Of a stretch of 64,000 nucleotides of DNA, positions 62,023 through 64,000 are shown in pieces. Position 1 is the first letter of the stretch, and each line of letters starts with the position of its first letter. A program made the position numbers and the translations under genes. The notes under the pieces were generated by a model. That model was not told where the DNA came from, ran no database searches, and saw nothing but the letters and a program-made list of their open reading frames with translations. Source of the DNA: Escherichia coli. GTDB lineage: Bacteria; Pseudomonadota; Gammaproteobacteria; Enterobacterales; Enterobacteriaceae. The stretch lies in assembly GCF_048403405.1 (NCBI RefSeq), contig NZ_CP183129.1; one strand, given 5' to 3'.

Positions 62023-63951
62023 ATGCCTGTTATAACTCTTCCTGATGGCAGCCAACGCCATTACGACCACGCTGTAAGCCCCATGGATGTTGCGCTGGAC
62101 ATTGGTCCAGGTCTGGCGAAAGCCTGTATCGCAGGGCGCGTTAATGGTGAACTGGTTGATGCTTGCGATCTGATTGAAAACGACGCACAACTGTCGATCA
62201 TTACCGCCAAAGACGAAGAAGGTCTGGAGATCATTCGTCACTCCTGTGCGCACCTGTTAGGGCACGCGATTAAACAACTTTGGCCGCATACCAAAATGGC
62301 AATCGGCCCGGTTATTGACAACGGTTTTTATTACGACGTTGATCTTGACCGCACGTTAACCCAGGAAGATGTCGAAGCACTCGAGAAGCGGATGCATGAG
62401 CTTGCTGAGAAAAACTACGACGTCATTAAGAAGAAAGTCAGCTGGCACGAAGCGCGTGAAACTTTCGCCAACCGTGGGGAGAGCTACAAAGTCTCCATTC
62501 TTGACGAAAACATCGCCCATGATGACAAGCCAGGTCTGTACTTCCATGAAGAATATGTCGATATGTGCCGCGGTCCGCACGTACCGAACATGCGTTTCTG
62601 CCATCATTTCAAACTAATGAAAACGGCAGGGGCTTACTGGCGTGGCGACAGCAACAACAAAATGTTGCAACGTATTTACGGTACGGCGTGGGCAGACAAA
62701 AAAGCGCTTAACGCTTACCTGCAGCGCCTGGAAGAAGCCGCGAAACGCGACCACCGTAAAATCGGTAAACAGCTCGACCTGTACCATATGCAGGAAGAAG
62801 CACCGGGTATGGTCTTCTGGCACAACGATGGCTGGACCATCTTCCGTGAACTGGAAGTGTTTGTTCGTTCTAAACTGAAAGAGTACCAGTATCAGGAAGT
62901 TAAAGGTCCGTTCATGATGGACCGTGTCCTGTGGGAAAAAACCGGTCACTGGGACAACTACAAAGATGCAATGTTCACCACGTCTTCTGAGAACCGTGAA
63001 TACTGCATTAAGCCGATGAACTGCCCGGGTCACGTACAAATTTTCAACCAGGGGCTGAAGTCGTATCGCGATTTGCCGCTGCGTATGGCCGAGTTTGGTA
63101 GCTGCCACCGTAACGAGCCGTCAGGTTCGCTGCATGGCCTGATGCGCGTGCGTGGATTTACCCAGGATGACGCGCATATCTTCTGTACTGAAGAACAAAT
63201 TCGCGATGAAGTTAACGGATGTATCCGTTTAGTCTATGATATGTACAGCACTTTTGGCTTCGAGAAGATCGTCGTCAAACTCTCCACTCGTCCTGAAAAA
63301 CGTATTGGCAGCGACGAAATGTGGGATCGTGCTGAGGCGGACCTGGCGGTTGCGCTGGAAGAAAACAACATCCCGTTTGAATATCAACTGGGTGAAGGCG
63401 CTTTCTACGGTCCGAAAATTGAATTTACCCTGTATGACTGCCTCGATCGTGCATGGCAGTGCGGTACAGTACAGCTGGACTTCTCCTTGCCGTCTCGTCT
63501 GAGCGCCTCCTATGTGGGCGAAGACAACGAGCGTAAGGTACCGGTAATGATTCACCGCGCAATTCTGGGGTCGATGGAACGTTTCATCGGTATCCTGACC
63601 GAAGAATTCGCTGGTTTCTTCCCGACCTGGCTTGCGCCGGTTCAGGTTGTTATCATGAATATTACCGATTCACAGTCTGAATACGTTAACGAATTGACGC
63701 AAAAACTATCAAATGCGGGCATTCGTGTTAAAGCAGACTTGAGAAATGAGAAGATTGGCTTTAAAATCCGCGAGCACACTTTGCGTCGCGTCCCGTATAT
63801 GCTGGTCTGTGGTGATAAAGAGGTGGAATCAGGCAAAGTTGCCGTTCGCACCCGCCGTAGTAAAGACCTGGGAAGCATGGACGTAAATGAAGTGATCGAG
63901 AAGCTGCAACAAGAGATTCGCAGCCGCAGTCTTAAACAATTGGAGGAATAA
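62023..63951 (+). CDS. thrS: threonine--tRNA ligase
   Basis: 642 aa; TGS domain, class II aaRS core, anticodon-binding domain. Confidence 0.95.
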
Positions 63952-63954
63952 GGT

Positions 63955-64000
63955 ATTAAAGGCGGAAAACGAGTTCAAACGGCGCGCCCTAACCGTATCA
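63955..64000 (+). CDS. infC: translation initiation factor IF-3, first 15 codons, initiating at an ATT codon
   Basis: ATT AAA GGC GGA AAA CGA GTT CAA ACG GCG encodes (M)KGGKRVQTARPNRI 4 nt after thrS stop. Confidence 0.8.
   Translation, partial: MKGGKRVQTARPNRI

Follow-up and report, generated by a model that had tools for sequence, protein, structure and literature searches.

The window analysed here, a stretch of 64,000 nt of chromosomal Escherichia coli DNA, closes a few codons beyond the end of thrS, and the question raised by this locus is whether the open frame found there is a gene of its own and at which codon its translation would begin. Our answer, held with a confidence close to certainty for the explanation as a whole, is that the window ends in the 5′ end of E. 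coli infC, the gene of translation initiation factor IF3, which would be initiated at an AUU codon, directed to it by a Shine-Dalgarno (SD) sequence and repressed by IF3 itself. The complete gene comprises 543 nt (180 aa plus stop), of which the window contains 46 nt, i.e., residues 1–15 only; therefore, the identity of the gene rests on genomes with an identical thrS-infC junction.

The coordinates of the relevant features are collected in Table 1. The last letters of the window read TTG GAG GAA TAA GGT ATT AAA GGC ... CCT AAC CGT ATC A. In the thrS frame the junction is translated as E, E, stop, G, followed by I-KGGKRVQTARPNRI; thus, thrS and infC share one reading frame, and from the ATT to base 63999 the infC frame gives (I/M)KGGKRVQTARPNRI. 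Since this frame opens just two codons before the AAA, an in-frame ATG, GTG or TTG located further upstream is impossible. None of these codons occurs in the infC frame between the ATT and the window end either, and the first one to be met is a GTG positioned 36 codons downstream (codon 37), beyond the window. The preliminary description had placed the infC start at an ATT codon 4 nt after the thrS stop. The codon stands, while the distance has to be corrected, as the spacer is 3 nt long and the ATT starts at the fourth base after the stop. The codons quoted there for the beginning of the gene (ATT AAA GGC ... CCT AAC) are present exactly in the window, and the statement that no ATG, GTG or TTG lies nearby in frame holds up to the window end. 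The GGAGG embedded in the last thrS codons, with its 8-nt spacing, is the putative ribosome-binding site serving the AUU.

Table 1. Features at and upstream of the thrS-infC junction (window coordinates).
Feature	Position	Strand	Basis
thrS (threonine--tRNA ligase), 642 aa	62023..63951	+	ORF list; thrS annotation in the E. coli genomes that match
Promoter-like TTGAGA-17-TAAAAT within thrS (3′ part), ~190 nt before the ATT	63739..63767	+	Consensus match, 10/12
Shine-Dalgarno GGAGG for infC, within the last thrS codons (TTG GAG GAA), 8 nt before the ATT	63942..63946	+	Sequence; GGAGG-N8-ATH also in Enterobacterales and other gammaproteobacteria
thrS stop codon TAA	63949..63951		Sequence
thrS-infC spacer GGT, 3 nt, in frame with both genes	63952..63954	+	Sequence
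ATT initiation codon of infC	63955..63957	+	PGAP CDS start in genomes with identical junction; no upstream canonical start possible; PMC5499595, PMC1865079, PMC3091656
infC 5′ end, 15 codons + 1 base, truncated where the window ends	63955..64000	+	Translation; frame extended in L001 and L122; matches in Pfam, NCBIfam and PDB

When followed into L001 and L122, two loci with an identical junction, the infC frame remains open for 180 codons and ends with TAA. This is the IF3 frame of about 180 aa which had been predicted for the downstream sequence, and the early closure that had been named as evidence to the contrary does not occur in these genomes. The annotation of both loci gives the order thrS-infC-rpmI-rplT-pheM-pheS-pheT, that is, the operon context of an IF3 gene, and PGAP starts the infC CDS at the base matching window position 63955, both in the nearest genome (NZ_CP103479.1, which is L122) and in L001. 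The 180-aa product carries the two Pfam domains of IF3, IF3_N at residues 15–84 (116 bits) and IF3_C at residues 91–177 (122 bits), and is recognized by the NCBIfam infC equivalog TIGR00168 with 285.7 bits (cutoff 60) over profile positions 2–170. The E. coli IF3 chain of PDB entry 8jsg_A (180 aa) is identical to it at residues 2–180, with Met at residue 1 in place of the formal Ile of the ATT codon; the solved 180-aa IF3 chains begin with MKGGK in their depositors' sequence. Codon 1 is a non-canonical AUU (TAA GGT ATT, all in frame) with no canonical alternative that would spare the N-domain, as the GTG falls inside IF3_N.

We found the junction to be conserved nearly without exception in the species. 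A 601-nt query taken from the end of the window finds a match in 5425 of the 5426 complete E. coli genomes, where it covers annotated thrS followed by infC, and 5420 of these 5425 carry the 71-nt thrS-infC junction without a single difference. Over the last 25 kb of the window, the nearest complete genome, L122, shows four substitutions and one 1-nt indel.

Several other differences and genes in the window deserve a record of their own. At position 63859 the window has A where the nearest genomes have G, by which thrS codon 613 changes from GGT (Gly) to AGT (Ser); this G613S substitution falls within the C-terminal part of ThrRS, which binds the anticodon, and precedes the infC start by 96 nt. 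In espL1 (60019..61500, − strand), a type III secretion effector-like gene (the arpB locus of K-12), we observed a 1-nt insertion at 60053–60060 (T8 on the + strand vs. T7 in the nearest genome), and the ORF ends after 493 aa vs. 632 there; the indel marks a genuine pseudogene, or else it is a sequencing error in the homopolymer. In turn, ydjF (11166..11923, + strand), coding for a regulator of the DeoR/GlpR family, has lost 1 nt at about 11591–11595 (G5 vs. G6 in the nearest genome), which breaks the 252-aa gene up into two ORFs, one of 144 aa and one of 84 aa. Between yniA and pfkB, a small gene at about 56909..57199 (− strand) bears the PGAP name "ghoS, type V toxin-antitoxin endoribonuclease antitoxin"; because PGAP annotates no ghoT-like toxin gene beside it, it looks like an orphan GhoS-family paralogue.

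The start of infC was also compared among other bacteria, in a sample of 120 loci from species-representative genomes of many phyla, retrieved by searching the DNA with a degenerate pattern for PPVCRIMDYGK, a motif of IF3; in the sampled loci the stretch between this motif and the IF3 N-domain aligns free of gaps. In 47 of 117 loci no canonical start is found between the upstream in-frame stop and IF3_N. A start was assigned when an SD-like motif, 5 nt or longer, was located 4–10 nt upstream of the candidate codon. Under this rule, 84 of the 116 species other than E. coli possess an SD-linked in-frame ATT, ATC or ATA before the IF3 N-domain (ATT in 34, ATC in 25 and ATA in 25, ATA being as common as ATC in this sample), three possess a canonical codon and 29 are left unassigned, whereas the same rule applied out of frame as a control picked an ATH codon 11 times out of 232. 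The TGGAGGAATAAGGT-ATT junction hardly varies among Enterobacterales, and beyond the ATT the changes are of a synonymous or conservative kind, the pattern of a coding sequence. Judged from the identity of the junction in E. coli and from the recurrence of SD-linked ATH codons across species against the control, the ATT start is not a chance feature, and its wide conservation as a non-canonical ATH start agrees with AUU being the target of IF3 autoregulation. Seven picocyanobacterial loci (Cyanobium/Synechococcus), at which no SD is detectable, open with ATG (MPPRPRF...) and appear to use it; the non-canonical infC start would therefore be widespread, not universal. The arrangement of a stop, one sense codon and an ATH, with thrS and infC in the same frame, was found at eight loci of Enterobacterales, Shewanella and Candidatus Photodesmus. 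This shared frame may be nothing more than inherited geometry, imposed by an SD that lies within the last thrS codons.

As for transcription, the promoter-like site listed in Table 1 is a candidate internal promoter of infC, named as such from its match to the consensus in a region with four promoter-like sites (61500–64000) vs. 3.7 expected in shuffled sequences. The scan of this region for promoters and terminators returned no more sites than the shuffles. Wertheimer and colleagues are said to have located infC promoters inside thrS in 1988. The search of the whole 64-kb window against Rfam at the gathering threshold gave no match, the junction and the thrS leader (61500..62022) included; this 5′ leader contains the translational operator bound by ThrRS.

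What does the AUU codon do? The sequence work shows that the gene is infC, fixes its exact start and the position of the SD relative to it, and shows that no alternative canonical start is available and that the site is conserved. That the AUU is decoded as a start and is necessary for IF3-dependent repression comes from the literature, where it is established, and the site in the window is identical to the one studied. For E. coli K-12, both the repression of infC by IF3 in trans and its loss once the AUU is mutated to AUG are established (Butler et al., 1987, and Sacerdot et al., 1996, cited in PMC5499595 and PMC1865079). The AUU start of E. coli infC was first described in 1982 (Sacerdot et al., as cited in PMC3091656), and besides infC only pcnB has such a start in E. 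coli (PMC5499595). IF3 treats AUG, GUG and UUG alone as canonical; any other triplet is rejected while the 30S initiation complex is being formed (PMC5499595). According to the same article, infC is the typical example of a gene repressed by its own product via AUU/AUC (PMC5499595, citing Brombach and Pon, 1987; Butler et al., 1987; La Teana et al., 1993; Sacerdot et al., 1996), and another source holds the AUU codon to be sufficient for autoregulation of E. coli infC (PMC1865079, citing Sacerdot et al., 1996). In Staphylococcus aureus, a Ribo-RET initiation peak coincides with the AUA start of infC (bioRxiv 10.1101/2025.06.19.660503). In the window, translation of infC would likewise start at the AUU, 3 nt past the thrS stop, with the codon decoded as fMet by the initiator tRNA, as known from the literature, and with initiation directed by the GGAGG located 8 nt upstream within the last thrS codons. 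Proofreading by IF3 would destabilise 30S initiation complexes formed on codons other than AUG, GUG and UUG; high IF3 would lower initiation at the infC AUU and low IF3 would relieve it, which amounts to a negative translational feedback.

Three other readings of the junction have to be weighed against the AUU-initiated, self-repressed infC. The ORF list based on ATG, GTG and TTG, when made for the extended locus, contains only a 144-aa ORF that starts with the GTG 36 codons downstream of the ATT, which bears out the earlier remark that ORF callers overlook the start of infC. It could be argued that this GTG is the true start and the ATT stretch an untranslated leader, all the more that PDB entries 5me0 and 5me1 contain an E. 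coli IF3 chain of 144 aa of exactly that extent. Yet, the GTG sits inside IF3_N, so that a protein started there would be truncated in this domain and would lose profile positions 1–28 of TIGR00168, while the strong SD precedes the ATT and not the GTG, the interval between the two codons is kept as protein, with synonymous changes across Enterobacterales, and the solved 180-aa chains have MKGGK at their N-terminus. In addition, proteogenomics of Yersinia detected peptides upstream of the annotated start of infC, which was miscalled there (PMC3091656). With the domain, the SD position, the coding-type conservation and the published peptides all opposing it, the 144-aa IF3 was rejected as extremely improbable. 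As a separate observation, the 144-aa chain of 5me0_Z and 5me1 equals exactly the miscalled GTG-start ORF (residues 38–180), from which it follows that the miscall of the infC start has reached structural entries and databases.

The two remaining readings derive from the proximity of thrS. Initiation at the AUU could be driven mainly by ribosomes that terminate at the thrS TAA and re-initiate, rather than by free 30S subunits binding the SD, in which case IF3 would control only part of the flux. The juxtaposition of a stop, one codon and an ATH start in a single frame, kept in Enterobacterales, Shewanella and Candidatus Photodesmus, speaks in favour of such coupling. Against it stands the fact that in many other lineages infC has the SD-N8-ATH arrangement with no adjacent upstream stop, thus coupling is not needed for the use of AUU; moreover, promoters inside thrS also drive transcription of infC and yield transcripts that lack the thrS start. 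The control has been ascribed to the AUU codon itself (Sacerdot et al., 1996, cited in PMC1865079), and our literature search for translational coupling between thrS and infC gave nothing relevant. We consider it unlikely, by a wide margin, that termination-reinitiation is the main drive, and just as doubtful that ribosomes terminating on thrS might re-initiate at the AUU as 70S particles and so escape in part the discrimination by IF3. If true, re-initiation by 70S would tie the output of IF3 to translation of ThrRS on top of the known autoregulation; it is a low-probability addition to the AUU mechanism, not a replacement for it. Given that only TAA GGT separates the two genes and that they are in frame, read-through of the thrS stop would produce a ThrRS-IF3 fusion, and the in-frame arrangement is real and kept in several gammaproteobacterial orders. 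However, TAA is an efficient stop, there is no evident signal for read-through, the IF3 that is known is a free protein of 20 kDa, solved as chains of 180 aa, and in other lineages the frames of thrS and infC are unrelated. The fusion has practically no chance of being correct and was rejected for want of support.

The preferred reading, an infC gene started at AUU and controlled through it, makes this junction a known annotation trap as well as a classic regulatory device, in which a fidelity factor limits its own synthesis via a codon that it rejects. For a genome scan, the infC ATT serves as a positive control, being a real non-canonical start missed by ORF callers confined to ATG, GTG and TTG, and nothing new follows from it. 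On every feature examined by sequence, the site is a member of its family, namely the already known AUU start of E. coli infC. It shares the gene, codon, SD, spacing and the thrS-infC-rpmI-rplT-pheMST context with infC of E. coli K-12 (Sacerdot et al., 1982; Butler et al., 1987; Sacerdot et al., 1996), from which it does not differ at the feature itself; the thrS of the window has, relative to the nearest genome, the G613S change 96 nt upstream. The infC genes of other bacteria, such as Bacillus subtilis with AUU (PMC1865079) and S. aureus with AUA (bioRxiv 10.1101/2025.06.19.660503), likewise possess an AUH codon after a strong SD, just upstream of IF3_N, but the codon varies, the N-terminal extension differs in length and most of them lack an abutting thrS stop. 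In E. coli pcnB, the AUU start also limits expression and confers sensitivity to IF3 (PMC5499595), yet its product, poly(A) polymerase, is an unrelated protein and the control does not form an autoregulatory loop. A more distant parallel is provided by the autoregulation of eukaryotic eIF1 and eIF5 (PMC3326321), where a factor responsible for start-site fidelity again controls its own synthesis via a suboptimal initiation site; there, in contrast to the IF3 system, to which it bears no homology, the device consists of a poor Kozak context or upstream ORFs and operates through a scanning mechanism.
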